Translations under genes and position numbers: made by a program | Origin: a phage | Strand: one strand, 5' to 3' | Sequence record: NC_105788.1 | Length of the DNA: 49,689 nucleotides | Notes under the pieces: model-generated | The model's input: only the letters and a program-made list of their open reading frames with translations | Told to the model about the DNA's origin: nothing | Database searches by the model: none | In this document: positions 1 to 48,359 of the stretch, in pieces | How positions within the stretch are numbered: the stretch's first letter is position 1 | How the letters are laid out: every line of letters starts with the position of its first letter

Positions 1-44
1 TCAATCATCGACAAGCTGAATCACTACAAAAAGGAGATCGCAAA

Positions 45-749
45 ATGAAGTTGATTTGGTCCCTATTCGACGGTTCCGGTCTTGCAGGTCATGAACTGGC
101 TAAGCAAGGTCACAAGGTGATGTGCTTCAACTTTGACGGAGCCGATCACGGAGATTATGCAAAGTACAATGCCCGAGTGGAGCATCCGAACATTGAGTAT
201 GTGAACGTGTTCATTGACGCAGCGTTTGAGCGTGATGCTATCGCTGGCGTGTATGGCAAGCCGGATTTCATTATGGCCTTCCCGCCGTGCACTGACCTAG
301 CTGTTAGTGGTGCCGCTCACTTCGCAAGAAAGCGTGAACGCGATCCGTTATTCCAGGAGAAGGCTGTTGCCACCGCCCGGATTGCTGCGAACATTGGCGA
401 TAGCCTGGGCGGGACTTACATCATTGAGAATCCGGTAAGCGTCCTGTCGTCTGCGTGGAGAAAACCAAATCACTCCTTCAATCCCTGGGAGTATGGCGGC
501 TATCTTCCTGAGAATGACTCACACCCCTGGTTCCCGATGTATATTGCGCCGCGCGATGCTTACCCGAAGAAAACTTGTCTGTGGACCTCTGACGATTTTG
601 TCATGCCTGAAAGAAAACCTGTAAGCCTGCCTGACGGGTACTCTGCACAGCACAGCAAGCTAGGCGGCAAGTCTGCCAAAACTAAACTGATACGCTCTCT
701 GTCGCCCAGGGGATTTTTTAAAGCGATCGCAAATAGCACTTTTTGTTAA
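45..749 (+). CDS. DNA (cytosine-5)-methyltransferase-like protein (short orphan MTase)
   Basis: ATG with AAGGAG RBS 8 nt upstream; N-terminal LFDGSG (motif I, FxGxG), FPPC (motif IV Pro-Cys), IIENP (motif VI ENV-like); last codons ANSTFC-stop are encoded by the conserved box. Confidence 0.55.
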   Translation: MKLIWSLFDGSGLAGHELAKQGHKVMCFNFDGADHGDYAKYNARVEHPNIEYVNVFIDAAFERDAIAGVYGKPDFIMAFPPCTDLAVSGAAHFARKRERDPLFQEKAVATARIAANIGDSLGGTYIIENPVSVLSSAWRKPNHSFNPWEYGGYLPENDSHPWFPMYIAPRDAYPKKTCLWTSDDFVMPERKPVSLPDGYSAQHSKLGGKSAKTKLIRSLSPRGFFKAIANSTFC

Positions 750-752
750 AAC
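733..752 (+). promoter_or_regulatory. conserved box ATAGCACTTTTTGTTAAAAC, followed by hairpin-free spacer, CATAAT and conserved leader TACCTCATCGAAACGAGA
   Basis: one of about 25 copies of the box; overlaps stop codon of upstream gene. Confidence 0.6.
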
Positions 753-810
753 TCGATCGGTGTGATTTGGCATAATTACCTCATCGAAACGAGATTGAGG
801 AAAAACAAAA

Positions 811-996
811 ATGGCACGTCGCATCACTAAAGACCTTAAAGTTCTGAACAAAGAAAACGTAGTTAAGATCCTGGTTATTTGGGGATACAGCGAAGAGTCA
901 GCAAAGCAGAAGGTCGATGCTGGTTATGACCTGGCTATCAAAGCAATGCCTAACGACGACGCTAAAGGTATTGCAAACTACGTATCTTTCTTCTAA
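811..996 (+). CDS. hypothetical small protein (61 aa)
   Basis: ORF track; ATG 811 preceded by GAGG; sits between two box cassettes. Confidence 0.5.
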   Translation: MARRITKDLKVLNKENVVKILVIWGYSEESAKQKVDAGYDLAIKAMPNDDAKGIANYVSFF

Positions 997-1011
997 TTAA
1001 CGGGCCAGAAA

Positions 1012-1197
1012 ATGAAAACAAAATTAGTTCATAAATCAGAGATCAAGATCGGCGATACTGTGATTCACAACGGAGAGCTTAAAACTGTTGGTAAGGAGTC
1101 GATAACCAAAGATGAATTTATGGGTCTATTGTTGTTCGGCGACTCCTATCGACTTGGTTACAAAATGGTTGAGCTTGTTGAGGATGTAAAATTCTAA
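1012..1197 (+). CDS. hypothetical small protein (61 aa)
   Basis: ORF track; stop immediately followed by box. Confidence 0.5.
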   Translation: MKTKLVHKSEIKIGDTVIHNGELKTVGKESITKDEFMGLLLFGDSYRLGYKMVELVEDVKF

Positions 1198-1217
1198 ATA
1201 GCACTTTTTGTTAAAAC
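1198..1217 (+). promoter_or_regulatory. conserved box ATAGCACTTTTTGTTAAAAC (start of a 65-bp cassette nearly identical to the one upstream of the Dam gene)
   Basis: sequence identity to other copies; followed by CATTAT and TACCTCATCGAAACGAGA leader. Confidence 0.6.
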
Positions 1218-1279
1218 TGCCGGAATGGAATCTGGCATTATTACCTCATCGAAACGAGATACACATCAGGAGCAAGAAA

Positions 1280-1615
1280 ATGAAATACGAAAATCGCGGT
1301 AACGAAATCATCAAAATCGAAAACGGCGTTGAGTACATCATGGTTGCTTGCAAGGTTAACGGAATGGACTCATTCGTTTGGGAAGAAATCAAAACTGAAG
1401 ACAAAGCAGCTAAATTCCTGACCTGTGTTAATCAGCCTGATATGGAACGCGATACCTTCACTCGTTACGGTAAATATGAAATCGTTCGCGAGACTTCCTG
1501 CTTCTGGTGGGTCAAGCCTAACAGCCAGTACAAATTCCCGCGCAAAATCAGCAAGCGCACTATGCGCGAATCTGGCTTCAAGAAAGCATACGCCGCCGAG
1601 TTTGACATTGATTAA
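1280..1615 (+). CDS. hypothetical protein (111 aa)
   Basis: internal ATG of ORF 1208..1615 preceded by CAGGAG RBS; upstream part of ORF is the box cassette. Confidence 0.55.
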   Translation: MKYENRGNEIIKIENGVEYIMVACKVNGMDSFVWEEIKTEDKAAKFLTCVNQPDMERDTFTRYGKYEIVRETSCFWWVKPNSQYKFPRKISKRTMRESGFKKAYAAEFDID

Positions 1616-1634
1616 TAGCACGAATTGCTAAACG
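1615..1634 (+). promoter_or_regulatory. conserved box ATAGCACGAATTGCTAAAC followed by hairpin CCCCGA..TCGGGG and TATAGT
   Basis: box copy overlapping stop TAA of upstream gene. Confidence 0.6.
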
Positions 1635-1689
1635 CCCCGAGTGAGATCGGGGTATAGTTAACACATCAACCAATCAGGAGAATCAACAG

Positions 1690-1920
1690 ATGGCAATTAA
1701 ACACCCCGGGCTGAAGAAGGCAATTCAGCGCGCCAATGATGAGGGATTCATTGTCTACAGAACGCATTACGGTCACATGGGTGGCTTGAAAGAGCATCAT
1801 ACAAAGATTGAGCTTGTCGACTTGTGGGAGGATTACGATACATTCCAGTATATCGCCACGTCTGACGTAGAAGCGCAAGTGAAATACATCAACGACACAA
1901 TTGATAGTTTCAGAGGGTAA
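1690..1920 (+). CDS. hypothetical protein (76 aa)
   Basis: ATG preceded by AACCAATCAGGAG conserved RBS block. Confidence 0.55.
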   Translation: MAIKHPGLKKAIQRANDEGFIVYRTHYGHMGGLKEHHTKIELVDLWEDYDTFQYIATSDVEAQVKYINDTIDSFRG

Positions 1921-1924
1921 TTAT

Positions 1925-2296
1925 ATGTTTAAACAATTCGTAGACCTGGACTTCTCAGCCAGCACGGCAATCCAGACTGACGAGAAAGAAAGCGTAGCGA
2001 TCGAGAACATCGCGCGCAAGATTTACAACAAGCAAGAGAAGGCCGTGAGAGCCGCTCTAAGCGCTTATTATGGTGTAAGTGATGCAATGGAGTGCGTTAA
2101 CCGCGTAACGCGCGTGGTGGACCGTTTGGGTGTGTCTAGTTTCGTCGATAAAGACACTGGAGAGGTAATCATCCAGCTAAACAACCCATCTATGCGTACT
2201 GAGTTAGGCAATATTGCACTGTGGGGAGTTGCTAACTATTCAATCACCGTCAACTCATGTGTAGCGGATCGTGTTAAGGAGGCATTGTATGAATGA
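1925..2296 (+). CDS. hypothetical protein (123 aa)
   Basis: ATG at 1925 with AGAGGG RBS; ORF track 1901..2296 begins at a TTG. Confidence 0.5.
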   Translation: MFKQFVDLDFSASTAIQTDEKESVAIENIARKIYNKQEKAVRAALSAYYGVSDAMECVNRVTRVVDRLGVSSFVDKDTGEVIIQLNNPSMRTELGNIALWGVANYSITVNSCVADRVKEALYE

Positions 2297-2489
2297 TAAT
2301 ATTTACCGCGTAGTTGCGATCTCACGCAAAACGCAAAAGAGTGTGATCGCTTACATGGGTAGTAGCGCCATTGAAGCTACGGATGCCTTCGAATTATTGA
2401 AGAACAACGAGGGATTTATGAACACGTTCCGCGTTCGACTTGAGCGCCTCGAACCTGTTATCATTGATGAAGCGCGAAAGTTATCCTGA
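2289..2489 (+). CDS. hypothetical protein (66 aa)
   Basis: ATG at 2289 with AAGGAGG RBS; 8-nt overlap with upstream gene. Confidence 0.5.
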   Translation: MNDNIYRVVAISRKTQKSVIAYMGSSAIEATDAFELLKNNEGFMNTFRVRLERLEPVIIDEARKLS

Positions 2490-2505
2490 CTGGTTAGGGG
2501 GAATA

Positions 2506-2979
2506 ATGAACCATACTTACAAAATCACAACGAAGTCACCGAAGATTAACGGAAGCACGGTTGCGGCACTAAATAACGCGGCGGCAATTCACGAGAAAAA
2601 CATCATGGAGCGCGTTAAGGCGGCGGTAGGCCGATTCTACGGAATCAACGCAGACATTGCCGACAGCAAACGACTGTTCAAGTATGTGCCAGGCCATCCA
2701 TATAGCCGGATGATTGATATTAAGCACGACAAAGAGCTTGTTAGAATCGGATCGCTTGGCGTTGACGAGTTCGACCACAGCATTAACCTAGTTACGGCAT
2801 ATCAAACGTTGTTAGAATCGGATCGCTTGGCGTTGACGAAAAGCATGATTTGGATTCACACCTTCTACACCGGAAAATTTAACAGCGTTATTCATAAGAG
2901 AGTTTACGAAAGCTACTCTGAAGCTAATAAACAGCATGAAGTTTTAGGTGGAACGCTTAAAGCATATATTCCGGCATAA
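2506..2979 (+). CDS. hypothetical protein (157 aa)
   Basis: ATG 2506 after AGGGGG RBS; contains a 31-bp perfect direct repeat. Confidence 0.5.
   Translation: MNHTYKITTKSPKINGSTVAALNNAAAIHEKNIMERVKAAVGRFYGINADIADSKRLFKYVPGHPYSRMIDIKHDKELVRIGSLGVDEFDHSINLVTAYQTLLESDRLALTKSMIWIHTFYTGKFNSVIHKRVYESYSEANKQHEVLGGTLKAYIPA
2738..2839 (+). repeat. 31-bp perfect direct repeat (TTGTTAGAATCGGATCGCTTGGCGTTGACGA) at about 2738-2768 and 2809-2839
   Basis: read directly; copies 71 bp apart so they are translated in different frames. Confidence 0.7.
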
Positions 2980-2999
2980 ATAGCACGAATTGCTAAAGA
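2980..2999 (+). promoter_or_regulatory. conserved box ATAGCACGAATTGCTAAAGA
   Basis: box copy directly after stop of 2506..2979. Confidence 0.6.
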
Positions 3000-3057
3000 C
3001 ATGCTATCGGGGGTGATATATATTACTCCCACACCAAACGAAACAAAGGAATCAAAA

Positions 3058-3282
3058 ATGAGCATTAAAGTTGAGAATATCATCAAGCACCTGAACGCGA
3101 AAGGTCGTGTAGTTATCAAAATGGATAAGTCTTCCGGTTTTATTTCAATGACGGTAACTAAGTCCCGTAACGGTAATAACGTTATCGGCAGTACGCCAGG
3201 CTCGCGCTTAGTAAATGCAACAGATGCGGATGTGCGCGCTACGCTTGAGTCTAACTCAATTTACATTAATTCATGGAGTTGA
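3058..3282 (+). CDS. hypothetical protein (74 aa)
   Basis: ATG 3058 after AAAGGA RBS (internal start of ORF 3001..3282). Confidence 0.5.
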   Translation: MSIKVENIIKHLNAKGRVVIKMDKSSGFISMTVTKSRNGNNVIGSTPGSRLVNATDADVRATLESNSIYINSWS

Positions 3283-3495
3283 TTGATGGAGCGGGATAAT
3301 TTCTAGACTCGTTATTTTGCCGCTCTTGATGCTGGGCTTAGCGCGGAATGGTGTATCAAGGTTGCGTATAAAGAAATTACGCTTGACGACGCGCTAGGGA
3401 ATATGGATATGGACGCGGAGAGTGAATATAATCCCGGCTTCGAGATGCCTGGTGATGATATTGATGAGGACGACGACGATTATATTCCCTGGTAA

Positions 3496-3515
3496 ATAGC
3501 ACGATTTGTTAATAT
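3496..3515 (+). promoter_or_regulatory. conserved box variant ATAGCACGATTTGTTAATAT
   Basis: box copy after an unannotated acidic open frame. Confidence 0.5.
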
Positions 3516-3575
3516 TGCCGTAAGGTCATTTGATAAAGTGGCCTTATTCAAGATAACCAATCAGGAGCGAACGCA

Positions 3576-3992
3576 ATGAAAACCATTAAACTTAAATGCA
3601 CTTCAGCAGACAAAATCACAGGATTCGAAGTAAACAATCTGTATAAAGGTCGTGAGCGCTATGATGGCACTCGCGAAGTAAAGTTAAAATGCGGTAAGTA
3701 TTTAAAACTTGAAAAGCATGATGAATTACAGATTCACGGATCTGATGAAATCTTCTTCGCGAAGTTCACCGAGTTGAAAACAAAGACGCTCAAGTGCACC
3801 GGACTTGACCATCGCAACCCGATGAAAAAATCATTCAAAGTTGGCAAGCGTTATCAGGTAGAAAGCGGTCGCGCTCTTGGTGGCGTAGCTGGTTACATCT
3901 TTGATGAAGATGGATATCGCTGGACCCTGTTTCGCGAAGAGGTTGGTTTTAGTATCGCAGACGGCACAACCTTTGAGGCCAAATACTTATAA
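3576..3992 (+). CDS. hypothetical protein (138 aa)
   Basis: ATG preceded by AACCAATCAGGAG block. Confidence 0.55.
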   Translation: MKTIKLKCTSADKITGFEVNNLYKGRERYDGTREVKLKCGKYLKLEKHDELQIHGSDEIFFAKFTELKTKTLKCTGLDHRNPMKKSFKVGKRYQVESGRALGGVAGYIFDEDGYRWTLFREEVGFSIADGTTFEAKYL

Positions 3993-3995
3993 CCA

Positions 3996-4015
3996 ATAGC
4001 ACTTTTTGCTAAACG
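3996..4015 (+). promoter_or_regulatory. conserved box ATAGCACTTTTTGCTAAACG
   Basis: box copy after stop of 3576..3992. Confidence 0.6.
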
Positions 4016-4068
4016 CGTGTACCATTGGCGGTGTATCATTCACACCGTCAACAAAGGAGTTTATTGTG

Positions 4069-5637
4069 ATGTTTAATATTAAGCCAAAACTGAATTACCA
4101 ACAGATTATTGAGATCGCAAATAGCACTGGAGTTAATCCGGTGGCGATCGCAATTCGTGAAAACAGCTATGGGGATTCAGTTTCGTTTTGGCAAGATCCG
4201 ATCGATATCAACAGTGGAAACGATAAGTTCCCGCTGATTTCGTTAGGTGGCGATAACCTGGTATTCGAATATGCAAAGGCAAAGGCTGAGTCTGTACAGT
4301 TTCCTGTTTCGTCTGCGTACGCTCATTTCATTGGGTGCATCTCAGCCGCGATGCTAGGGAAGTTTTGGGTGCAATATCACGGAGAAGAGCAACCGACCGC
4401 TCTTTATATGGTGATTAGTCAGCCACCTTCAACAGGTAAATCAGCTATTAACTCAGCGGCGATTACACCTATGCGTGCGGAGATTCAGCGGCTGAATGAA
4501 GAGCGAAAAAAGGAGCGCATCCGTTTAACCAGTCAGCTACGTCAGGTCGAGAAGGAAATCAAAAACGATCCAAAGGGTAATACGACGGCGGCGCTGTACG
4601 AAGACAAGGAAAAACTGGAAGAAAAGATCAAGAAGATGGCTGATATTGTTTTTGCGGTATCAGATCCTACACCTGAAGGTCTTGCGAAAGTTGCGGCTGT
4701 TCAAGGTCATTTCTCAGTAATCTCTGATGAGGCAACGGCAATAAATACATTGCTTGGCCTGACTTATGGCGGCTCTGATAAGAAATCAAACAGCGAGCTT
4801 ATACTCAAGGCGTGGGATAAAAACCATATGGAGGTTGCGCGTTCAAATCAGGACAACAACTTATCTCTTTGCCCGGTCGGTTCGATCTGCGTCATTGCGC
4901 AGGATGAAACAATCAAGGGTATCATGGACGCAGGCCAGCGCGGCATCGGTGTATCTGAGCGTTTCCTCCTGGTTCGCGAGGAACCGCTTTTAGGTACTCG
5001 TATTCTTTGCGATGAAAATGGTGATGCGCTGTATAAGGAAGTCGATCGAGGGTTGGTGAGTAAATATTATCGACTCGTGCACAACATTATGAAGGAGGAC
5101 AACATTGTTCTCTCTGTAAGCCGCAATGCTATGCGTGAATTAAACCTTGCGCGTCAGGCGATGGAGCCGGATTTCGCAGCCGGGGGAAAATACTCTCACT
5201 CAATGCTACGCGGTCATCTCGGCAAGTTCGATAAGCATGCCTTGCGTATTGCTTCAGTTCTCCACACGATCAAGAATTGGGAGGGTGAATCACCGAACCG
5301 TTCCAACCGTGAGATTGACCTTGAAACAATGCAGGAAGCAATCATGATTTTCAATGAGCTTTCCAGGACTTATCTGTCGTCTGCCAGCGCTGCCGGGTAT
5401 GCTGGTGATGAGGCTGAATCTCGTAAGCTGATTGATGTTATCACTGAGATCGCAAAGAAGAACAAAGGGCGCGCTCCGATTCATAGCATTGTTGCAAAGT
5501 GCCGGAATGTTACGCCGTTCAACGGTCAACAGAAAGTATCTGAGCGAATCGACAGCCTGCTGATCACGCTCGAAGAGATGAACTACACTTGCCGGATTGA
5601 TGATATTGTTTTCATCAACCCTCGACTGATGGGTTAA
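4069..5637 (+). CDS. large early protein of unknown function (about 522 aa) with P-loop-like PPSTGKS motif
   Basis: ATG 4069 (GTG 4066 possible) after AAAGGAG; long uninterrupted ORF; motif resembles DUF3987-type NTPase signatures but not verified. Confidence 0.55.
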   Translation: MFNIKPKLNYQQIIEIANSTGVNPVAIAIRENSYGDSVSFWQDPIDINSGNDKFPLISLGGDNLVFEYAKAKAESVQFPVSSAYAHFIGCISAAMLGKFWVQYHGEEQPTALYMVISQPPSTGKSAINSAAITPMRAEIQRLNEERKKERIRLTSQLRQVEKEIKNDPKGNTTAALYEDKEKLEEKIKKMADIVFAVSDPTPEGLAKVAAVQGHFSVISDEATAINTLLGLTYGGSDKKSNSELILKAWDKNHMEVARSNQDNNLSLCPVGSICVIAQDETIKGIMDAGQRGIGVSERFLLVREEPLLGTRILCDENGDALYKEVDRGLVSKYYRLVHNIMKEDNIVLSVSRNAMRELNLARQAMEPDFAAGGKYSHSMLRGHLGKFDKHALRIASVLHTIKNWEGESPNRSNREIDLETMQEAIMIFNELSRTYLSSASAAGYAGDEAESRKLIDVITEIAKKNKGRAPIHSIVAKCRNVTPFNGQQKVSERIDSLLITLEEMNYTCRIDDIVFINPRLMG

Positions 5638-5641
5638 TAAT

Positions 5642-6049
5642 ATGCTTCTTCTTTTAGATCTGTTCAGGTTCTGCGAAGGTTACGACAAATACACCCGACA
5701 GCACATAGCGAAATTTATATACGCCCACAATGAAAGTGAGCGATTTGCTAAGGCCGCCGGGATGACTCGCCGTGAATTTACAAGCGCGCTATCTAAGGAG
5801 TTTTGCGCACGTTGCGTGACTGAGGGTTATCTTGATTGCAGGGGTGGGTTTTACTGGTGCAAGGGAAAGATCAAGCGCCCGGTAATGATGAAGCTGATGT
5901 GTATTGATGGCTACAACAATCGATATACGTGGGAAATGATGCACATTGGAGAAATGAGTGATGAAGAATTGTTTGGCGAACGTAGAAACGTTGATAGATC
6001 GGAACGTCGAATTGTGCGCAAGGCTCCAGCTTACGAAAGAAGAATTTGA
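5642..6049 (+). CDS. hypothetical protein (135 aa)
   Basis: ORF track; overlaps next call by about 90 nt in another frame, so the true 3' end is uncertain. Confidence 0.4.
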   Translation: MLLLLDLFRFCEGYDKYTRQHIAKFIYAHNESERFAKAAGMTRREFTSALSKEFCARCVTEGYLDCRGGFYWCKGKIKRPVMMKLMCIDGYNNRYTWEMMHIGEMSDEELFGERRNVDRSERRIVRKAPAYERRI

Positions 6050-6161
6050 GCAAGGATTACTTAGCCTACTGCTCACTTCGATGAGGGCCAATAACGACGG
6101 TGAGCACAATCTTTGCGATCAGGATGGGGAGTTGCTACTTCACGTCAAAAGGTACAAATAG
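5961..6161 (+). CDS. hypothetical protein (66 aa)
   Basis: ATG after GGAG RBS; stop TAG lies inside a box copy, as for many other genes. Confidence 0.45.
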   Translation: MKNCLANVETLIDRNVELCARLQLTKEEFEQGLLSLLLTSMRANNDGEHNLCDQDGELLLHVKRYK

Positions 6162-6177
6162 CACTTTTTGTTAAAAC
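6158..6177 (+). promoter_or_regulatory. conserved box ATAGCACTTTTTGTTAAAAC followed by hairpin CCCGAT..ATCGGG, TATATT and TTCATCGAAACGAAACG leader
   Basis: box copy. Confidence 0.6.
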
Positions 6178-6238
6178 ACCCGATCTCGCATCGGGTATAT
6201 TTGTTTCATCGAAACGAAACGACCTGAAGGAAAACATC

Positions 6239-6454
6239 ATGGCTAACAAATTTTTAGTAGTTCGCGTTTACAATCACTCAAACGGTACTAGTAGTGAGAT
6301 TCCTACTCTTTACAGCAAGACTGATGGGTGGACTGAAGAAGCGGCGGTGGCGAACGAGAAGAAGGTCGCTGAGATGTACGGCGACACCTGTGAAATTGAA
6401 GTTCGCGAATACGCAAAACTCACGAACGAAAGTTACATGTGGGCTGATGCATAA
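6239..6454 (+). CDS. hypothetical protein (71 aa)
   Basis: ATG 6239 after GAAGGA RBS (internal start of ORF 6113..6454). Confidence 0.5.
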   Translation: MANKFLVVRVYNHSNGTSSEIPTLYSKTDGWTEEAAVANEKKVAEMYGDTCEIEVREYAKLTNESYMWADA

Positions 6455-6458
6455 AAGA

Positions 6459-6487
6459 AAAGGAGGCTTACGCCTCCTTTTTTTCGT
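6459..6487. terminator. bidirectional intrinsic terminator (AGGAGGC-TTAC-GCCTCCT flanked by A-run and T-run)
   Basis: GC stem plus T8 on + strand and A-run upstream; lies between convergent + and - transcription units. Confidence 0.7.
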
Positions 6488-6872
6488 CCTTACGAATTGA
6501 AAAATAAACCAGCAACAGGCCAATGAAAACGAGAGTCCATCCTACAATTGCATCGTACCAGTTTTCCGGTTTTGTTACTGTGATGCTTTCAGCGTTAACC
6601 GTGTTAGCCTGAATGGTTGACACTTCAATTGACTTCTTCAAGGAAGAGTCAATCTTTCCTACATTGGACTTCTCAACTTTAACATCTCGCTTATCTTCGG
6701 ATTTTGCGGTTACTCCTGCTAATTGCTTTGTGTTCTCCTCTCCGATTTGTGCTGTAACTTCCGGTTTAGATCCGATTAAACCGCTCATGGCAGATGCCGT
6801 CGAGCAACCGGATAGAGAAATAACACCAACAGCAACAGCAATCGCAATGCACGTTTTCTTCATTCTCATCAT
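6468..6872 (-). CDS. unimolecular spanin (u-spanin, T1 gp11-like)
   Basis: N-terminal lipoprotein signal with lipobox LSGC plus C-terminal transmembrane helix ([20 protein letters not shown]); directly downstream of endolysin with ATGA start/stop overlap. Confidence 0.75.
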
Positions 6873-7357
6873 AGTTCCTTAACGCAATACGCGTATTCTT
6901 CAGCGCGTCGGTTCTTGAGTCCTCTAGACACTTCGCGCTTTTTGGTTTTTGGGTTGTAGTAGTATACCCATCGCCATAACTGATTGCACGCTTCCTTGTG
7001 CTTACTCTGATTTATTAGCTTAAGCATTGTAGACGATCCGAACGCGCCAGTCCCAACGTTGAAAGTGAAGCTATACAGTGATGCGCGCATAGTTACCGGG
7101 ATATCAACCTTCACCTTTTTGTCGACGTATCGCTGAGCGACGCCGATATGTTTTATCAACAAGGCATCGCATTCTCGCTTAGTGTATTTCTTACCAGGTA
7201 TGACGTCAGGCCCGGTTATTCCGCTGCATACGGTAGGGACTCCGGCGATATCGTAATAAACCTCGTATTCTATACCTTCGATCCGTTCCAGTAGGGTAGG
7301 TGTCAACGTCAAAGCGGCCCCGATTGATGCGCCTATAACGTTATTTTTTAAACTCAT
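6869..7357 (-). CDS. SAR endolysin (lysozyme, phage 21 R-like)
   Basis: Gly/Ala-rich weakly hydrophobic N-terminal SAR-like segment followed by E..D..T lysozyme-type catalytic region; strong GGGGGAG RBS; position between holin and spanin. Confidence 0.7.
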
Positions 7358-7572
7358 TATCTCCCCCTGATCTTAAGCGCCTTATTTAGATCGCCATCGT
7401 TTAACGCCTCCTGAATTGCCTTACTATCACGATACTTCCAGTACGCTCCCCAGGCGCCAAAAAGCAGAAAGCAAATGAATGTAGCGCCAGCAATATAAAG
7501 TTGCCCTGTCGCCGCCCCTACCAACGAAGCGCCGCCTGTGCTGGACGTCGCAGCGGTTAAAAATTCTTTCAT
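7357..7572 (-). CDS. holin (pinholin-like, about 71 aa)
   Basis: small membrane protein immediately upstream of SAR endolysin; start chosen at internal ATG with GGTGAG RBS; upstream TTG start of ORF track not supported. Confidence 0.6.
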
Positions 7573-7690
7573 AATCTCACCATATATTTTTTGAACAAGT
7601 GAGTCGATTTTAACCTTCAAATTTACTTGATACAACGCAAAAAGGCCAGCATGTAAACCATGCCAGCCTGTAAGGTGATGAATGATATTG

Positions 7691-7867
7691 TTAATCTATC
7701 GCAATAAATTCCAGATAGCTGCCGTTCAGAGGAGCCTGGATTGCTGAACCTCGCCCGTCGTAAATCTCAAATAATCCCCCACCGAAATCATAACCAACAC
7801 TATAGATCTGATTTACGCGGAATGGAAGTGTTTTGGAGTCATTTCGGATGCACTTAACTCGTTTCAT
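7691..7867 (-). CDS. hypothetical small protein (58 aa, below ORF-track cutoff)
   Basis: manual translation MKRVKCIRNDSKTLPFRVNQIY...; AAGAGGA RBS 6 nt upstream; coordinates approximate. Confidence 0.4.
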   Translation of the reverse strand: MKRVKCIRNDSKTLPFRVNQIYSVGYDFGGGLFEIYDGRGSAIQAPLNGSYLEFIAID

Positions 7868-7921
7868 GATATATCCTCTTTGTTTTCGTTGTGGTTACTA
7901 TACCCGAATCCCTTCGGGCGT

Positions 7922-7939
7922 CTTTATCAATTAGTGCGA
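7922..7939 (-). promoter_or_regulatory. degenerate box copy (GCACTAATTGATAAAG) followed by hairpin CCCGAA..TTCGGG and TATAGT
   Basis: resembles box cassettes; overlaps stop codon of 7931..9082. Confidence 0.4.
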
Positions 7940-9082
7940 TCCTGTCATTTCTGGACGATATATGAAACGACCGATTTCCCCAAACTGCTTATCGTAAACA
8001 ATTACCGCCGCCTGGCGATACGATCGCCACCCTCCGCGTGCTGCGTATGCATCTTTCGCGCCTAACTGGCCGTGTACTTCATCAATACCAAGCGAGTGCT
8101 CAGTGATTGTCTGGTGATGCCAGTGACCACTATGAGTATACACATACTTGCTCTCGCCGAAGTCTGATCGGAAATCTGCCGCCATTGCTGCAAGTCTCGT
8201 ATCTGCCTTCTTCATAGTGTGACCGTGAGTGTATCCCAACAAAGTATTTCCCCAACGAGTCTTATGCAGAATCATAGGACTAACATCAACGAATACTCGC
8301 GGCTCGTCTTCATAATATGCCGACATTGCAGCTCGCAGCCAAATCATCCCAGACTGATCGTGGTTCCCTTCGATAACCTGGACCTCGACTTCTTTGTGTT
8401 TCATAAGCATTTTGTCGATGGCGCGACGCACAGAACGAATCGCTACATGCACCAATTTCGCATATCGTGAATCCTGATCCAGAACGTGACCGCTTGCCGG
8501 GGTAACAGCGTCAAGGCCGTCAGAGTGAAGGAAGTCGCCACCGATTAACAGAACAGCCTTCTCTGCGTTCGGCGCAATATCGATCGCGTAATTAAAGAAG
8601 TCGCTAAGCACTTTTTCCGCTACGTCGGTGGAATAGTTCTCACCGCATTCATGCTTATGAGCAAGCGCGCCAATATGGAGATCGAATACCGGATAGAGTG
8701 CCAGCTTACCCATCGCTGTCGTAAGCCCTTGCGAGGTTAGTAGCTCGGTTGGCTTTGCTCGCGGCAGGTCTTCACAGAATGCAATACGCGCCGCTTCCAT
8801 CATTGCCGCAATCTTCTCACGGTCCTGATCGGTTTTAACCCAGCGCACTACCTCGGTCCCATCTCCGCGAATCATCGTTGATGTGCCTTTTACCATGAAT
8901 CCTTCCGGTACGTTCTTAGCAACATGCTCGTTACCGTGGAAGTGGCCTTCTTTTGCCAATTTTGCGTGGCGAGCTTCAACCGTGCGAATGTGCATACCGT
9001 ACTTTTCCGCGATCTCGCGAAGTGTAAGTCCGTTCATGCGTTCTTCGATAAGTTGCTCGGTAGTGATTTTAGATTGTGACAT
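7931..9082 (-). CDS. HTH domain fused to calcineurin-like metallophosphoesterase (Mre11/SbcD-like nuclease or PPP-type phosphatase)
   Basis: N-terminal helix-turn-helix-like segment (LTLREIAEKYGMHIRTVEARHAKL); metallophosphoesterase motifs DLHIG, GGDFLHSD, GNHD, GHTMKK, GHWHH; AAGGA RBS. Confidence 0.65.
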   Translation of the reverse strand: MSQSKITTEQLIEERMNGLTLREIAEKYGMHIRTVEARHAKLAKEGHFHGNEHVAKNVPEGFMVKGTSTMIRGDGTEVVRWVKTDQDREKIAAMMEAARIAFCEDLPRAKPTELLTSQGLTTAMGKLALYPVFDLHIGALAHKHECGENYSTDVAEKVLSDFFNYAIDIAPNAEKAVLLIGGDFLHSDGLDAVTPASGHVLDQDSRYAKLVHVAIRSVRRAIDKMLMKHKEVEVQVIEGNHDQSGMIWLRAAMSAYYEDEPRVFVDVSPMILHKTRWGNTLLGYTHGHTMKKADTRLAAMAADFRSDFGESKYVYTHSGHWHHQTITEHSLGIDEVHGQLGAKDAYAARGGWRSYRQAAVIVYDKQFGEIGRFIYRPEMTGSH

Positions 9083-9160
9083 ATTTTAATCCTTACATGA
9101 TAATGAAATACATTACTGAAAATGAAATTAGCGGTGTTAATACTACAGCAAAATAAAGTC

Positions 9161-9562
9161 TCATGCCACAGCCTTTAACCAGAATCCTAGATCTGAAGAT
9201 TTAAACTCAACCAGTTTTCCATTAACCTCAAGCATCATACTGTTTCTACCTGGTGAGTAATAACCTATATGCAACTCTTGCTCGATCCCAATAGTGCAAA
9301 GCACATTAACGAAGTCAGGAGGCAACCAATCAGAGAAAGGGATTTTCTTAACCTGCTTCTTTCCGATCCATATGGTCTGGTAGTCATCTAAGTTAATGTT
9401 TAAGCCTGGAAGACTTGTTGCTCTTTGCTGTTTTTCGTTCTCGCTCAATTCTCTTTCCTTCTTCACGATAAAATTCAAGTGATGGGGTAGCTGGCACTCT
9501 ATGCATTTTTCTCGGCATATCTTCCATAAATGAAATCTTTCCGTTTGAGATAATGCTAACAT
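9161..9562 (-). CDS. C-terminal frame of a frame-disrupted gene (hypothetical)
   Basis: protein-like ORF with no credible RBS at its own ATG; overlaps 9393..9665 by 170 nt in another frame. Confidence 0.3.
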   Translation of the reverse strand: MLALSQTERFHLWKICREKCIECQLPHHLNFIVKKERELSENEKQQRATSLPGLNINLDDYQTIWIGKKQVKKIPFSDWLPPDFVNVLCTIGIEQELHIGYYSPGRNSMMLEVNGKLVEFKSSDLGFWLKAVA

Positions 9563-9665
9563 CCTTTATATCGAAATATTTTGCTATTAGTGCTATATCG
9601 TCTGAGATTCCGCATTCCTTTGCGTGCTCCCACACTTCGCGCTTACCTTTCTTTTTTATCAGCAT
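9393..9665 (-). CDS. N-terminal frame of a frame-disrupted gene (hypothetical)
   Basis: good GGAGAAA RBS at 9665 start; 3' part looks like out-of-frame readthrough (KR-rich). Confidence 0.35.
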   Translation of the reverse strand: MLIKKKGKREVWEHAKECGISDDIALIAKYFDIKDVSIISNGKISFMEDMPRKMHRVPATPSLEFYREEGKRIERERKTAKSNKSSRLKH

Positions 9666-9852
9666 TAGTTAATTTCTCCACGTCAGAGATGAAGCCTTCG
9701 ACTTCTTCAACCGAGCAACGGTAATAAGACATTTTAAGGAAGTTCATAGCAATATCCCAATCGAAGTTGCCACCTTGCTTACTCGTAATATGAACGGCCA
9801 TTTTTGCAGACTGCTGGGCGATATTGAAAAAGTTTGCGTTAATGCGTGCCAT
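9643..9852 (-). CDS. hypothetical protein (69 aa)
   Basis: internal ATG of ORF 9643..9867 with GAGGAA RBS. Confidence 0.45.
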   Translation of the reverse strand: MARINANFFNIAQQSAKMAVHITSKQGGNFDWDIAMNFLKMSYYRCSVEEVEGFISDVEKLTNADKKER

Positions 9853-9908
9853 CTTCTGATTCCTCATTTCGTTTCTATGAAATAACTATACCCGACTTTC
9901 GCCGGGTA

Positions 9909-9928
9909 GTTTTAGCAATTAGTGCTGT
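9909..9928 (-). promoter_or_regulatory. box variant (AGCACTAATTGCTAAAAC) followed by hairpin TACCCG..CGGGTA and TATAGT
   Basis: box-like sequence overlapping stop of 9919..10170. Confidence 0.45.
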
Positions 9929-10170
9929 GTGATTATCTCAGAAGAAAGTTCTTCTACGTCTTTTTGGATGATTGAAGGCCAACGCTCGATATATTCATTT
10001 TTTATCTCATCGAAAGACATATCAAGAGAACTGGTGAACTCCCACAGATCGCAACCAATAACATCCTGAGTCAATCCGTTTTGCTCCATAATTTCGCAGC
10101 ACGTAGCGCGATAAAGAAGCCATAAACCTTGCTCAGTTAATTTAACAGGAACCATTTTTTCGCTCATCAT
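9919..10170 (-). CDS. hypothetical protein (83 aa)
   Basis: ATGA overlap with Dam stop; GGTGAGGAAAG RBS. Confidence 0.5.
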   Translation of the reverse strand: MMSEKMVPVKLTEQGLWLLYRATCCEIMEQNGLTQDVIGCDLWEFTSSLDMSFDEIKNEYIERWPSIIQKDVEELSSEIITQH

Positions 10171-10880
10171 ACTTTCCTCACCTTTGCTCGTTTGTTTTTA
10201 ACCGAAGGGCAAATGCTTGTGATTGGGATATAGTGAGTTTGCTGTGTCTCACCCTCTTTAAGTTCGCGCATGATAAAAATTACCGAACCTTTGTTATTAC
10301 CATCTACGGCCTTTCCAGTTTCACCGGATATGAAAGCCAGGCGACCGGATCGTGCGTATTCATTGCCGTCAATATCCTCAGTCAAGTCCGCTTCAATCCA
10401 GATTATTTCAGCTGCGTTCTGTCGCGCCTCAGTAAACCACGCCGTAGAGTTATCTGCAGGTAAAAGCATATCGATCTGATTGTTGTGCTCCATTTGCTCA
10501 ATGGCCTTCTTGACAAATATATCAGGTCGGCTATAAGGAGGATTTAACCAAACGTGCTTATTCTTTCCCCACCAACGTTTTAAGCAGTTTGTTTCCTGAG
10601 AGTAAAACTTCTCGCAAACTTTATTTTCTTCGCTTGCCGCAGCGTCGAGATCATATTTCCCATAACGACCCTCAAGGTATGCAATAACCTCGCGCGGAGT
10701 TGACCATAAATCACGAACAGCGTCAGGGGTATTTGTCCCCTTGTATCGACGCCCTGAAATCTCTTTGCAGGTTGGCGTTTTCAATGCCTGATAATAACCG
10801 CCTGATGCTATTGCTTCGCGAGTGAATGAGCAACCAGTCTCTGCAAAGTCGATGGTTTCAATATCATTAAAGTCTTTCAT
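10167..10880 (-). CDS. dam: DNA N6-adenine methyltransferase (phage Dam-like)
   Basis: WLNPPYS catalytic motif (NPPY); GAGAGGA RBS; preceded by a full box cassette. Confidence 0.75.
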   Translation of the reverse strand: MKDFNDIETIDFAETGCSFTREAIASGGYYQALKTPTCKEISGRRYKGTNTPDAVRDLWSTPREVIAYLEGRYGKYDLDAAASEENKVCEKFYSQETNCLKRWWGKNKHVWLNPPYSRPDIFVKKAIEQMEHNNQIDMLLPADNSTAWFTEARQNAAEIIWIEADLTEDIDGNEYARSGRLAFISGETGKAVDGNNKGSVIFIMRELKEGETQQTHYIPITSICPSVKNKRAKVRKV

Positions 10881-10931: not shown

Positions 10932-10951
10932 GTTTTAACAAAAAGTGCTAT
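10932..10951 (-). promoter_or_regulatory. conserved box (minus strand reads ATAGCACTTTTTGTTAAAAC); cassette nearly identical to 1198-1265
   Basis: box copy overlapping TAG stop of VRR-NUC gene, upstream of Dam. Confidence 0.6.
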
Positions 10952-11364
10952 TTCATTAATTCGTAAATTGCGACCTTGAATTGCTCAAATCCGTATGCGA
11001 CGGCAGGGAAGCCGCCACGCTCACGGACCTTTCGGAGAAATTCCCTTTGCTTGTCGCTGACTGGTGACGCCTTTCCTTTGCCTGACTTATTAACCCGCTT
11101 AAGTTCGATTGCTGCAAACGGGTATCGTGAGTTAACACCAATCAGGATAACAAAGTCTGACACGCCTTTAAGTAATCCGGCCTGCTCATCCCTGAGCGCC
11201 GATGTGATTGTTTTTTCACCTTCATTGACAGTGTGCCAAAATAGAAGGTGAGGAAAATTGTATTTCAGCCAGGATACACAATCCACCTGATGAGCGTCCT
11301 CCTTTCTAGTGTCGCTTGGATCTCTCTCGTAAAATTCTAAATAATCACCTTTGTCTGTAATCAT
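10948..11364 (-). CDS. VRR-NUC domain nuclease
   Basis: PD-(D/E)xK-like arrangement (GVSDFVILIG ... AAIELK); GGAGGA RBS inside helicase 3' end. Confidence 0.6.
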   Translation of the reverse strand: MITDKGDYLEFYERDPSDTRKEDAHQVDCVSWLKYNFPHLLFWHTVNEGEKTITSALRDEQAGLLKGVSDFVILIGVNSRYPFAAIELKRVNKSGKGKASPVSDKQREFLRKVRERGGFPAVAYGFEQFKVAIYELMK

Positions 11365-24402: not shown

Positions 24403-24450
24403 GATGTTTACCTTTTTGTGCTATTTATCGGTAGACTCATTATACAGGCG

Positions 24451-24475
24451 AAAAAAAACCCGCGCAAGGCGGGTT
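24451..24475 (-). terminator. intra-operon hairpin plus T8 between gpI-like and gpJ-like genes
   Basis: AACCCGC-CTTGC-GCGGGTT + T8 on minus strand. Confidence 0.5.
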
Positions 24476-24479
24476 AATT

Positions 24480-25079
24480 TTAACTCATATCCTCGGCATA
24501 AGAACCTGCTGAGAAAGTTGCTCCACCTCCGGCGCGATATCCATATGGGACCGGGAGAGGGTATCCCGCCGCCGTCGTATTGACAGCACCGCCGAACGCG
24601 TACGAAGGTTTATTCTTGCTTGATTGAACTTCAAAGTTTGCGCCACCCGGCTGCGGTGAAATCATCTGCATCACGCCGCCCAGCACCATAGCGCCGCCCA
24701 TCATAAACAGAGACGAGGACATTGTGCCCATTAAAGCCAGAGACGCGCCGCCAGTATAGAATGCTGCAACCATTATTGCCGCGCCCAATACAACCTGGAA
24801 TAGACCTCCTGTCTTAGAGCCAGTAGGGATCGGTACGATTCTTATCTCTTTCGCGCACTTGAATTTTTCCTCTTCATGGTGTCCAACGTTAACGCCATCC
24901 ACAAATATCGCAAACTTGCTACGAGATCCTATCTCGCTTTGCATGTATTCTTTAAATCCATCCACCTGACTGGATAGCGCCCGTATGGCTTCCGGGTAAG
25001 AGTCAACAGCGTAACGGTGAAAGACGCCGAAACGCCTCCCAAGTGAACCTGACAATTTAATTACTTTTACATCATTCAT
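24480..25079 (-). CDS. tail assembly protein (lambda gpI-like)
   Basis: shared blocks with lambda I (EAIRAL; IVP..G.K.GG.FQVVLGAA; MVLGGV.QM). Confidence 0.85.
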   Translation of the reverse strand: MNDVKVIKLSGSLGRRFGVFHRYAVDSYPEAIRALSSQVDGFKEYMQSEIGSRSKFAIFVDGVNVGHHEEEKFKCAKEIRIVPIPTGSKTGGLFQVVLGAAIMVAAFYTGGASLALMGTMSSSLFMMGGAMVLGGVMQMISPQPGGANFEVQSSKNKPSYAFGGAVNTTAAGYPLPVPYGYRAGGGATFSAGSYAEDMS

Positions 25080-26589: not shown

Positions 26590-26630
26590 TGATTTTTCCT
26601 CTTGTTTACCTGCAACCATTCTACAGCTAC

Positions 26631-26652
26631 AAAAAAACCCGCGCAAGGCGGG
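26631..26652 (-). terminator. intra-operon hairpin plus T7 between gpM-like and gpL-like genes
   Basis: CCCGC-CTTGC-GCGGG + T7; near-identical to the hairpin at 24451-24475. Confidence 0.5.
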
Positions 26653-26668
26653 CTTTTGTTATGTGGCG

Positions 26669-41063: not shown

Positions 41064-41089
41064 GTTTAACATTTAGTGCTATTTTACCA
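41064..41089 (-). promoter_or_regulatory. box copy (ATAGCACTAAATGTTAAAC) overlapping an extended -10 (TGGTAAAAT) upstream of TerS
   Basis: read directly on minus strand. Confidence 0.45.
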
Positions 41090-41101
41090 TATTGCAGGCA
41101 T

Positions 41102-41123
41102 AAAAAAACCCGCCGAAGCGGGT
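41102..41123 (-). terminator. intrinsic terminator (CCCGC-TTCG-GCGGG + T7) at end of minus-strand early arm
   Basis: GC hairpin plus T7. Confidence 0.65.
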
Positions 41124-41132
41124 TAGTATTTA

Positions 41133-42837: not shown

Positions 42838-42893
42838 TTCGATTTTCTCTCTTCGTTGTCGATGAGGTAACTATATCAAGTCACCCCACCGAC

Positions 42894-42913
42894 GTTTTAG
42901 CAATTCGTGCTAT
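42894..42913 (-). promoter_or_regulatory. conserved box (minus strand ATAGCACGAATTGCTAAAAC)
   Basis: box copy overlapping TAG stop of kinase gene. Confidence 0.6.
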
Positions 42914-43482
42914 TTGTTGATGAACGTGGCGGCTATGTGCTGAGCGGTAATTTCTGGATGACCTTCGACAGAAAAGAAGTCACATTCCTGATAACCGTTA
43001 ACCCCGATCATGTCGTCAAGATAGATATAGTCTCGGCTGTCGTTATCAAAGCTGCAACCGTTGCGATGGATTCGACATAGCTTAACCTGGATATCACCTT
43101 CAATCATCTGCAAGATCTCATCTTTGAATCCACCGTCAGTAAATACCGAAAGGGAGTGCGACTCTTTCACCTTGCTTTCCGCTCGCATACCGAAGAAGCG
43201 ATTTCCGAACTGCGGCTTGATGACCTCCTCGCTAATCCAGATCATAAACTGGCGCGGGCTTTTACCGTTCAGGATTGATGCTGGCTCTTCTTTATAGCGA
43301 CGGTCCTCATACAAGAACATGAAATACTCAAAATTAGTCTCACCCAGGATTGCTCGGGCAATCTCAAACATTGGAGCTTTAAAGCTGCGTAGAGCTACAT
43401 GATCGTAAGTGTCAGCCAGGATGCACCCTATAGTGTCTTTTCCCGCGCCAGGCGCACCGTTTAAAATGATAGCTGTTTTCAT
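42910..43482 (-). CDS. deoxynucleoside monophosphate kinase (T4 Dnk-like)
   Basis: Walker A LNGAPGAGKDT and LNGKSP block that also occur in T4 Dnk (recalled, not searched). Confidence 0.6.
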   Translation of the reverse strand: MKTAIILNGAPGAGKDTIGCILADTYDHVALRSFKAPMFEIARAILGETNFEYFMFLYEDRRYKEEPASILNGKSPRQFMIWISEEVIKPQFGNRFFGMRAESKVKESHSLSVFTDGGFKDEILQMIEGDIQVKLCRIHRNGCSFDNDSRDYIYLDDMIGVNGYQECDFFSVEGHPEITAQHIAATFINK

Positions 43483-44732: not shown

Positions 44733-44786
44733 GAGTGTTCCCTCGTTTTTTGGTGTAGGGGAATCATAGCGCATTCCCCTTGATAG

Positions 44787-44806
44787 GTTTTAGCAATTCG
44801 TGCTAT
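44787..44806 (-). promoter_or_regulatory. conserved box (minus strand ATAGCACGAATTGCTAAAAC) followed by hairpin AGGGGAATG..CATTCCCCT
   Basis: box encodes C-terminal TNSTNC-stop of upstream gene. Confidence 0.6.
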
Positions 44807-45008
44807 TCGTTTTAATAGTGATGCAAAAATAATTTTTTAAGCACGTCACCACGCGCGCTGAATCGACTTGTGGGAGCCTTAAAATTTCGTGGACCAATTG
44901 CACTGCCGACACCTCAGATTTGTAGTAGTGTGCGATTCTTGAGGTATTTGGGCGCATTCCTTCCACTGCGTCACGCGCTGCATCTTCTGTTGTCATGATA
45001 GTAGCCAT
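44790..45008 (-). CDS. hypothetical protein (72 aa)
   Basis: ORF track. Confidence 0.45.
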   Translation of the reverse strand: MATIMTTEDAARDAVEGMRPNTSRIAHYYKSEVSAVQLVHEILRLPQVDSARVVTCLKNYFCITIKTNSTNC

Positions 45009-46269: not shown

Positions 46270-46334
46270 AGCTGATTCCTCTGATTGGTTGCCTTGCTTC
46301 AATAAGGCCACTATATCAAATGGACTTGCGGAAG

Positions 46335-46353
46335 GTTTAGCAATTCGTGCTAT
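46335..46353 (-). promoter_or_regulatory. conserved box (minus strand ATAGCACGAATTGCTAAAC)
   Basis: box copy overlapping stop of a small unannotated ORF. Confidence 0.6.
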
Positions 46354-46499
46354 CGTTTAACGCACATCGTTTTTACTTCGTATCCGAACGGCTTGTTCTC
46401 TGAAATCACCTCCCGAGCCTTGTTGCATGATTGTTGGCTTTCCATGTATACGTGTTCTGGCCCGGTACTCATCAAGATAATCAAAATCCACGCCGCCAT
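46350..46499 (-). CDS. small protein with hydrophobic N-terminus (49 aa, below ORF-track cutoff)
   Basis: manual translation MAAWILIILMSTGPEHVYMESQQSCNK...; GAGGTGA RBS; TAATG overlap with upstream gene; stop TAG inside box; coordinates approximate. Confidence 0.4.
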   Translation of the reverse strand: MAAWILIILMSTGPEHVYMESQQSCNKAREVISENKPFGYEVKTMCVKR

Positions 46500-47080: not shown

Positions 47081-47565
47081 TAAACTAACTCGCACTCAAT
47101 ATCGAACGGTTCTGGATCTCGATGGAAGAAGCAGAGCGCCTCTTTATTCATACCGCCGACAAATCCAACTGCTCGCAACTGCTCATCGTTAACGTATGCC
47201 AGGTTGCTAGTGATTTCTTCAAAATCAACGATAACCGGGAACGTGCGGTTCTCATACCCCGAGCGCATCGGGTATCCGCCACTATTGAGAAGTCGAACCT
47301 TGCGCGGCTTAGGATTTGACTGGACTTCCCACTCGAAGAAGAACATCGTTCCGTCTTTCTCATTGAAGTCTGCCGGACCGACTACCTGGCTAACCGAAAG
47401 TCCATAATCCAGATCGTACGCGCCAGCTTTTACCAGATCGTCAACCTTAACACGGTAGCCTCCAGTACTGGAATCACACTTCACCGCATCAACCACGATA
47501 GGGTCCGCTTCCAGATCTCGGGTAAATCCCTTGTAACCGCCAGTGCAAATTAATTTGATTTTCAT
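47077..47565 (-). CDS. hypothetical protein (162 aa)
   Basis: ORF track; GAGGA RBS. Confidence 0.5.
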   Translation of the reverse strand: MKIKLICTGGYKGFTRDLEADPIVVDAVKCDSSTGGYRVKVDDLVKAGAYDLDYGLSVSQVVGPADFNEKDGTMFFFEWEVQSNPKPRKVRLLNSGGYPMRSGYENRTFPVIVDFEEITSNLAYVNDEQLRAVGFVGGMNKEALCFFHRDPEPFDIECELVY

Positions 47566-47620
47566 GCTATCGTCCTCGCTCGTTGTCGATGGGGTTACTA
47601 TATCGCAACCCCGGAATTTA

Positions 47621-48107: not shown

Positions 48108-48109
48108 GA

Positions 48110-48304: not shown

Positions 48305-48359
48305 CTTCGTTTCCTTATTCGTTGTCGATGGGATAACTATACCAGGTTATCCCGATCCG

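Follow-up and report, generated by a model that had tools for sequence, protein, structure and literature searches.

Phage T1 is where extra N6-methyladenine (m6A) and a DNA adenine methyltransferase induced by the phage were reported for the first time (Auer & Schweiger 1984; Wagner et al. 1979; both as cited in PMC3620542 and PMC11267873), and the reading of phage Dam and Dcm enzymes as anti-restriction factors is an accepted one (bioRxiv 10.1101/2023.08.16.553469, PMC11267873, PMC3620542). A short phage cytosine methyltransferase has been described in a study of retron Ec86 (bioRxiv 10.1101/2023.08.16.553469; cited by PMC13158370 in its published form, Wang et al., Cell Rep 2024), where all four escape mutants isolated from K42, a phage with 95% identity to KarlJaspers (Bas06), disrupted a 711-bp dcm gene that is encoded by 34 of the 35 retron-sensitive phages. 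Expression of K42 dcm was toxic only with the retron present and raised 5-methylcytosine (5mC) on the multicopy single-stranded DNA (msDNA) of the retron, as seen by liquid chromatography coupled to mass spectrometry (LC-MS), and the C82A/E128A/K175A/K176A mutant of the enzyme gave neither this rise nor Ec86 activation. The window analysed here, the whole 49,689 nucleotides of the phage sequence record NC_105788.1, carries one gene of each kind; both genes are already known, as the classical Dam of T1 and as the published trigger family of retron Ec86, and are annotated in sister phages. The window is best explained as a T1-like genome with two orphan methyltransferases, T1 Dam and a minimal DNMT3-like C5-cytosine methyltransferase, which stand in separate transcription units and likely pre-methylate the phage DNA, and we give this explanation a probability of about 0.85. 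Gene identity, fold, motif register and the search for restriction genes were computed here, and the 5mC formation and retron triggering by the orthologue, as well as the activity of T1 Dam, are taken from the literature.

Identity of the adenine and cytosine methyltransferases

The adenine methyltransferase (Table 1) is identical to phage T1 Dam (gene ST20) at 236 of its 237 amino acids, which we regard as decisive for the assignment. It reaches 236.5 bits against Pfam PF05869 (cut-off 28.1; E=1.7e-70) and 237.2 bits against the TIGR01712 equivalog 'phage N-6-adenine-methyltransferase' (cut-off 97.05; E=6.7e-71), and its best PADLOC model is the 'orphan methyltransferase' PDLC03721, matched end to end with E=5.3e-173; no solved structure was detectable for it by sequence search. 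The gene follows the helicase and VRR-NUC genes, as it does in T1, SH6 and KP36. T1 Dam is reportedly specific for GATC, and we infer that the enzyme of the window makes m6A at the same site. The preliminary description, made from the letters of the window, had named a Dam-like enzyme with an NPPY tetrapeptide at this place and had claimed two methyltransferases of different chemistry, C5-cytosine and N6-adenine; both claims are borne out, the first by the open reading frame (ORF) and its tetrapeptide and the second by the identity to T1 Dam together with the fold, the motif register and the K42 5mC data for the cytosine enzyme.

The cytosine methyltransferase gene runs from an ATG at 45 to a TAA at 747-749, with a GGAG Shine-Dalgarno sequence 8-9 nt upstream of the start. 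The AlphaFold2 model of its 234-amino-acid product is confident over the whole chain, with a predicted local distance difference test score (pLDDT) of 90.1 and a predicted template modelling score (pTM) of 0.88, and the folds closest to it are those of solved C5-methyltransferases with their Rossmann-like catalytic domain: the 49 best Foldseek matches are all DNA C5-methyltransferases, 48 of them DNMT3A or DNMT3B chains, with E-values down to 6e-8. Against the catalytic domain of DNMT3A, for which the comparison sequence was verified as 100% identical to PDB 5YX2/6F57, hhalign gave E-values of 3.6e-4 to 8.7e-5, placed C82 on C710 and E128 on E756, and kept motifs I, IV and VI in register. Motif I aligns to LFAGIGG in E. 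coli Dcm, LFSGAGG in M.HaeIII and LFDGIATG (639-646) in DNMT3A; motif IV to C71 of M.HaeIII, the PC of E. coli Dcm and C710 of DNMT3A; and motif VI, at lower confidence than motifs I-IV, to ENV in E. coli Dcm and E756-N-V in DNMT3A. Model, Foldseek and motif evidence therefore point to a C5-methyltransferase catalytic fold with an intact active site of motifs I, IV and VI, nearest to the DNMT3 type. Motifs I, IV (Pro-Cys) and VI had been listed in the preliminary description, and they stand as FDGSG, PPC and ENP in register with M.HaeIII, Dcm and DNMT3A, save that motif VI is E-N-P, with proline in the valine position, and not ENV; the catalytic cysteine and the glutamate of ENV in genuine C5-methyltransferases, which it had named as the residues to be compared, are matched by C82 and E128.

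The conserved blocks continue towards the C-terminus. Across the diverse set A2, D171 and Y173 are 100% conserved, K175 and T177 93% and W180 98%, followed by R217 (98%), P221 (93%), R222 (95%) and G223 (98%), and P188 is invariant or near-invariant in the family alignments as well. The strand at the place of motif VIII (residues 177-181 in the model) belongs to K175-K-T177-C-L-W180, and in global hhalign K175 and T177 fall on R790 and R792 of DNMT3A with low confidence; a functional replacement of the motif VIII arginines by this lysine and threonine is plausible. Between this strand and the C-terminal block lie residues 182-216 (about 20-35 residues), mostly loop with one short helix, and the roughly 50 residues that remain after the motif VIII strand leave no room for a target-recognition domain of its own. 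The block R217-S-L-S-P-R-G, which sits in the loop between helices 211-217 and 222-230 of the model, is probably the equivalent of motif X; of three registers this is the favoured one, based on the helix-loop-helix and on the match of R-S-x-S/T-P to G890-R-S-W-S-V-P896 of DNMT3A. In the local mode of hhalign L206-G-G-K-S is paired instead with L888-L-G-R-S of DNMT3A, and by eye the block resembles motif IX (RxLTPRExAR).

Several observations count against the assignment to the C5-methyltransferases. The 234-amino-acid protein has no Pfam (E<=0.1), NCBIfam or PADLOC match; searches of PDB sequences with the single protein and with the profile of alignment A1 gave nothing useful, and with the profile of A2 they gave a marginal match to M.HaeIII (E=0.14) which places C82 exactly on C71 and ranks below a chance match to Ktr; the hhalign comparison with E. 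coli Dcm is weak (E=0.17), yet it keeps motifs I, IV and VI in register; the strand at the motif VIII place lacks the QxRxR arginines; and the C-terminal register (motifs IX/X) differs among the alignments. In hhalign runs against single sequences only motifs I-IV are significant, and the C-terminal register shifts with the alignment mode. On the other side, the profile comparison of the fold that had been proposed in the preliminary description returns PHROG 757 'DNA methyltransferase' (E=5.6e-83), though no Pfam family, and three homologues 61-62% identical to the protein (P0007, P0011 and P0043) pass the PF00145 gathering score with 24.7-28.5 bits (cut-off 22) over motifs I-IV only.

The length of the enzyme had been called unusual, which is right by comparison with canonical enzymes and does not apply within its own family. 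A large protein database holds 4,864 homologues, of which the best 120 measure 158-259 amino acids, mostly about 225-250, and lie mainly on phage-sized contigs; among 50%-identity representatives an exhaustive search found 908 clusters, mostly of 210-280 amino acids. Short length is therefore a property of the family and no anomaly. That the ORF might be what is left, truncated and inactive, of a full-length C5-methyltransferase could be argued from a protein about 100 amino acids shorter than M.HhaI or M.HaeIII and without a Pfam match, but such a remnant is extremely improbable: the more than 4,800 homologues include a best 120 with invariant catalytic residues, the fold is confident throughout, the K42 enzyme of 236 amino acids is active, and the length is near that of the 285-amino-acid catalytic domain of DNMT3A. 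The length seen throughout the family, together with an orthologue that is active, ruled out the pseudogene reading.

By tblastn the gene is present in 1,517 of 50,697 phage records (~3%), carried by Escherichia, Klebsiella, Salmonella, Campylobacter, Vibrio and Arthrobacter phages and a cyanophage. Its annotation varies: in LeonhardEuler (Bas13) and KarlJaspers of the BASEL collection it is a 'Dcm-like C5 cytosine methyltransferase', with a 'Dam-like' gene also named in LeonhardEuler, and in CLB_P3 a protein 99.6% identical to that of the window is labelled 'hypothetical'. Automatic pipelines miss this short enzyme, as shown by the missing Pfam, NCBIfam and PADLOC matches, the label in CLB_P3 and the gene that was overlooked in KP36. 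A tblastn search of the whole T1 record found no homologue, and positions 1-1600 of the window match T1 in repeat elements only, the small ORFs beside the gene being unmatched too; the gene is therefore an accessory cassette that heads an early arm within Tunavirus. It lies about 9.4 kb from Dam, on the opposite strand, where it heads the other early arm.

Table 1. Coordinates of the methyltransferase genes, their motifs and other features in the window (aa, amino acids; SAM, S-adenosylmethionine).
Feature	Coordinates	Strand	Basis or remark
Short DNMT3-like DNA C5-cytosine methyltransferase gene, 234 aa	45-749	+	'Dcm-like' in the annotation of relatives
Motif I, F8-D-G10-S-G12, SAM-binding loop	66-80	+	Translation; G10, S11 and G12 invariant in alignment A1
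Motif IV, P80-P81-C82, catalytic cysteine	282-290	+	Translation; C82 invariant in A1 and conserved to 90% or more in A2
Motif VI, E128-N129-P130, ENV-type glutamate	426-434	+	Translation; three residues invariant in A1
D171-A-Y173-P-K175-K176-T177-C-L-W180, conserved block with the strand that takes the motif VIII (QxRxR) place	555-584	+	
R217-S-L-S-P221-R222-G223, most conserved C-terminal block	693-713	+	
T1-type Dam gene, DNA N6-adenine methyltransferase, 237 aa	10167-10880	-	Profile and identity matches
Dam catalytic tetrapeptide N113-P-P-Y116	10533-10544	-	Translation
VRR-NUC nuclease gene (PF08774, E=3.6e-13)	10948-11364	-	Between helicase and Dam
47-aa ORF (MNIANINAAINRYEHIYRVALFSDMALANKSKSIIDKLNHYKKEIAK)	49593-49689 + 2-48	+	Crosses the joined ends; CLB_P3 alignment and annotation
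Repeated intergenic element, copies	731-792, 1196-1257, 3494-3555, 6156-6217	+	
Repeated intergenic element, copies	42844-42915, 44737-44808, 46284-46355, 47571-47642, 48310-48381	reverse complement	
Repeated intergenic element, copy	49516-49575		Upstream of the 47-aa ORF
45-nt element with GC-rich hairpin AAAAAAACCCGCGCAAGGCGGGTT, three copies	24438-24482, 26617-26661, 41088-41132		Late region

Cytosine methylation and target specificity

Over its whole length the protein of the window is 55% identical to the copy in KarlJaspers, and by analogy with the K42 Dcm data and this identity it would form 5mC in DNA. The window phage is also predicted to be sensed by hosts with retron Ec86 such as BL21. 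In the proposed reaction the FDGSG loop would bind the S-adenosylmethionine (SAM) cofactor, Cys82 would attack C6 of a flipped-out cytosine, and Glu128 would protonate N3, after which the methyl group would pass to C5 and the cysteine would be eliminated. Since the protein has no recognition domain, recognition must come from short loops, as it does in DNMT3.

The preliminary description had called the specificity of the enzyme unclear, a fair statement, as CCWGG was assumed rather than mapped in the K42 work. Three points weigh against a simple transfer of the CCWGG site. The target was taken over from E. coli Dcm, with the loss of defence upon mutation of CCTGG in the msDNA as its sole support, and MG1655, which is dcm+, showed little msDNA 5mC with an empty vector, and the retron was not triggered by host Dcm (bioRxiv 10.1101/2023.08.16.553469); on msDNA, then, the phage enzyme is no plain equivalent of host Dcm and may differ from it. 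In addition, the loop between motif VIII and the C-terminal block reads DNPGWAK in K42/KarlJaspers and GYSAQHSK in the window, and with this difference an identical specificity of the two enzymes is not guaranteed.

The fold might serve for something other than plain CCWGG methylation, namely another or relaxed specificity, a preference for hairpin or single-stranded DNA, or transfer of another group such as a carboxymethyl from carboxy-SAM (Cx-SAM). The lack of a canonical recognition domain and the failure of host Dcm in MG1655 to mimic the phage enzyme on msDNA speak for this, as does the LC-MS comparison for K42, which as described was made only against a 5mC standard (bioRxiv 10.1101/2023.08.16.553469). 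As to the transferred group, the selectivity of CmoX hinges on an arginine replacing Asn304 of M.HhaI in motif X, and Cx-SAM is supplied by E. coli (PMC12783734); Arg217 and Arg222 are near-invariant in the family of the window protein. However, 5mC rose clearly with the K42 enzyme and not with its mutant, mutation of CCTGG in the msDNA abolished defence, and DNMT3A, a true methyltransferase, has R891 beside the motif X glycine, so that an arginine there does not imply use of Cx-SAM. CmoX candidates are moreover defined by SPPC together with the arginine, and most of their contigs carry cmoA (PMC12783734), whereas the motif in the window is FPPC, and the annotations of close relatives show neither cmoA nor a ligase. 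CmoX itself (PDB 8YF3, PMC12783734) is a protein of 372 amino acids in the PDB chain, with SPPC and usually accompanied by cmoA and a ligase; the window protein differs from it in FPPC, in the near-identical genomes where neither gene is annotated, and in an orthologue that makes 5mC. On balance a departure from plain CCWGG methylation of this wide kind is unlikely, and the reading as a CmoX-like carboxymethyltransferase, which the fold would allow, is unlikely too.

A related thought is that the short enzyme is no copy of host Dcm in function, in that it would recognize DNA without a recognition domain and act on a differing site, on the outer cytosine, or on hairpin or single-stranded DNA. 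A specificity, or a range of substrates, that differs from the inner cytosine of CCWGG would explain why the phage enzyme, and not the host Dcm of MG1655, triggers Ec86; we consider this conceivable but on the whole doubtful. If true, this C5 family, present in about 3% of phage records, would serve as a minimal model of how C5-methyltransferases recognize sequence.

Orphan status, restriction sites and proposed role

The annotations of SH6, T1 and KP36 contain no restriction enzyme, and except for generic helicase-motif matches the neighbours of both methyltransferases match no PADLOC restriction model, those of the cytosine methyltransferase gene being small proteins of unknown function. The absence of a cognate restriction gene claimed in the preliminary description thus holds in these neighbourhoods and relatives. 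VRR-NUC is a nuclease fold of the PD-(D/E)xK type, which is common to many restriction enzymes, and its gene is the one directly upstream of Dam, in the same orientation, so that a hidden restriction-modification pair could be imagined with one of the methyltransferases as a member, for example Dam with the adjacent VRR-NUC. But the VRR-NUC gene belongs to the replication module, where it runs over the end of the helicase gene; in T1 an annotated terminator separates it from Dam, and in KP36 an additional gene stands at this place; its product matches no PADLOC restriction model, and Dam best fits the 'orphan methyltransferase' model; and the cytosine methyltransferase has only the small proteins of unknown function beside it. 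There is no evidence for VRR-NUC as a restriction partner of Dam, and a hidden pair is highly improbable. The VRR-NUC gene, which in the window overlaps the helicase stop, is conserved in T1, SH6 and KP36. As candidates for a hidden restriction enzyme, VRR-NUC, a metallophosphatase 'DNA repair exonuclease' and a DUF3987 protein were all rejected after Pfam and PADLOC searches.

For two orphan enzymes, the proposed role is that Dam methylates phage DNA at GATC through its NPPY active site and that both enzymes most likely pre-methylate replicating phage DNA, which would block methylation-sensitive restriction enzymes in new hosts, of the MboI/DpnII type at GATC and of the EcoRII type at CCWGG. 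The cost would be that bacteria exploit these very activities to raise an alarm, the cytosine enzyme being what retron Ec86 senses. Here we infer both the specificity of the window's cytosine methyltransferase and the anti-restriction role.

Neither GATC (237 sites) nor CCWGG (82 sites) is avoided in the window, and the same is true of CCSGG (72 sites, observed/expected 1.47). In contrast, 6-bp palindromes are strongly avoided, with no AAGCTT against 15.7 expected, no GGATCC against 9.1 and one GAATTC against 10.2; ACCGGT, GCCGGC, CCGCGG and GAGCTC are likewise missing, and AGGCCT, GCATGC and CTGCAG occur once each. Retention of GATC and CCWGG together with avoidance of palindromes fits self-methylation plus avoidance elsewhere.

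A number of findings nevertheless weigh against the proposed role. T1, which has no cytosine methyltransferase gene, has equal observed/expected ratios for CCWGG and GATC, so site usage proves nothing and holds no specificity signal. The BASEL study saw no simple link of these genes to restriction resistance; the claim of the preliminary description that the two are likely anti-restriction or epigenetic factors agrees with the standard literature reading. In favour of the role counts KP36, a T1-like Klebsiella phage whose DNA is reported as fully EcoRII-resistant at 155 sites; the authors of that 2013 study, who saw no cytosine methylase gene, credited this to host Dcm (PMC3620542), and the resistance could indeed be due to host Dcm. 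KP36 gp74 (47552-48244, minus strand) is, however, a member of the short C5-methyltransferase family with 42% identity and FPSC instead of FPPC; it was the overlooking of this gene that led to the credit given to host Dcm. The counts made here for KP36, 155 CCWGG and 302 GATC, agree with the published ones.

It may also be that both are genuine methyltransferases whose main use lies outside restriction escape, in marks for replication, packaging or the timing of expression, or in a shield from nucleases of the phage or other nucleases of the host. E. coli K-12 already has Dam and Dcm, so that such marks would bring little gain there unless the phage replicates faster than the host enzymes can follow; T1 lacks the cytosine methyltransferase gene, which makes that gene accessory; and the phage relies heavily on palindrome avoidance. 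Against this, only about half of the GATC sites of lambda are methylated, host methylases lagging behind fast-replicating phage DNA (PMC3299994), so that a phage copy closes a real gap; the anti-restriction reading of phage Dam and Dcm is the accepted one; and the literature examined shows no regulatory role for either enzyme in T1-like phages. PMC3299994, which treats non-specific adenine methyltransferases, names no tie to the T1 Dam family. We hold a main use of this other kind to be rather unlikely, and pre-methylation of the phage DNA is the reading kept here.

Genome organization and comparison with known systems

The window is a complete Tunavirus genome (T1-like coliphage, Drexlerviridae). 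Over its first 12 kb it has matches in more than 400 genomes of the Drexlerviridae, and identity there is 93.6% with Shigella phage SH6 as well as with Escherichia phage LeonhardEuler, both of Tunavirus. When the end of the window is joined to its start, the alignment with CLB_P3 and LeonhardEuler is colinear, and the window therefore represents a T1-like genome in full, with its cut just upstream of the cytosine methyltransferase gene. Set against CLB_P3, the T at position 1 repeats that at 49689, the two being one base; if the duplicated T were kept, the 47-amino-acid ORF that crosses the joined ends would run in frame into the cytosine methyltransferase. This ORF precedes the methyltransferase gene, its stop overlapping the start codon of the latter (ATGA), has no PHROG match and is not present in LeonhardEuler or SH6. 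The methyltransferase gene had been described as opening the plus early arm, which is the case in the window as cut, but the 47-amino-acid ORF comes first once the ends are joined.

A 62-72-nt intergenic element, consisting of AAATAGCAC..TTGTTAAAA/TTGCTAA, about 17 nt, a TATAAT-like hexamer and CCTCATCGA, is repeated in front of genes of both divergent early arms and occurs in T1 too. One copy follows directly after the stop of the cytosine methyltransferase gene, and another, promoter-like, precedes the 47-amino-acid ORF. The element looks like the early promoter of this phage family; a generic sigma-70 scan did not pick it out. Promoter and terminator scans around the cytosine methyltransferase gene gave matches at chance level only, and no promoter claim is drawn from them. 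In the late region, a 45-nt hairpin element (Table 1) looks like a repeated bidirectional terminator.

Among described enzymes, the one of K42/KarlJaspers belongs to the same family and length class (236 against 234 amino acids) and has the same numbering of C82, E128, K175 and K176. Its gene has the same early-operon position, also in a T1-like phage, although K42 and KarlJaspers are Tempevirinae and the window phage belongs to Tunavirinae. Unlike E. coli Dcm, M.HhaI and M.HaeIII of PF00145, which have a large target-recognition domain and the motif VIII arginines, the phage protein has neither and stays below PF00145 detection; E. coli dcm is furthermore accompanied by the repair gene vsr, whereas the gene of the window stands without vsr. 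The catalytic domains of DNMT3A and DNMT3B (PDB 6F57, 6U8P) resemble it in fold at only 14-17% identity and a template modelling score (TM-score) of about 0.45-0.5; the phage protein has K-x-T for the RxR of motif VIII and is 50 residues shorter than the 285-amino-acid catalytic domain of DNMT3A, and for the oligomers and the CpG specificity of the DNMT3 type there is no evidence in it. Dam corresponds to phage T1 Dam, which is of equal length, differs by one conservative substitution (T212 in the window, V in T1) and shares the gene order of helicase, VRR-NUC, Dam and a small ORF.

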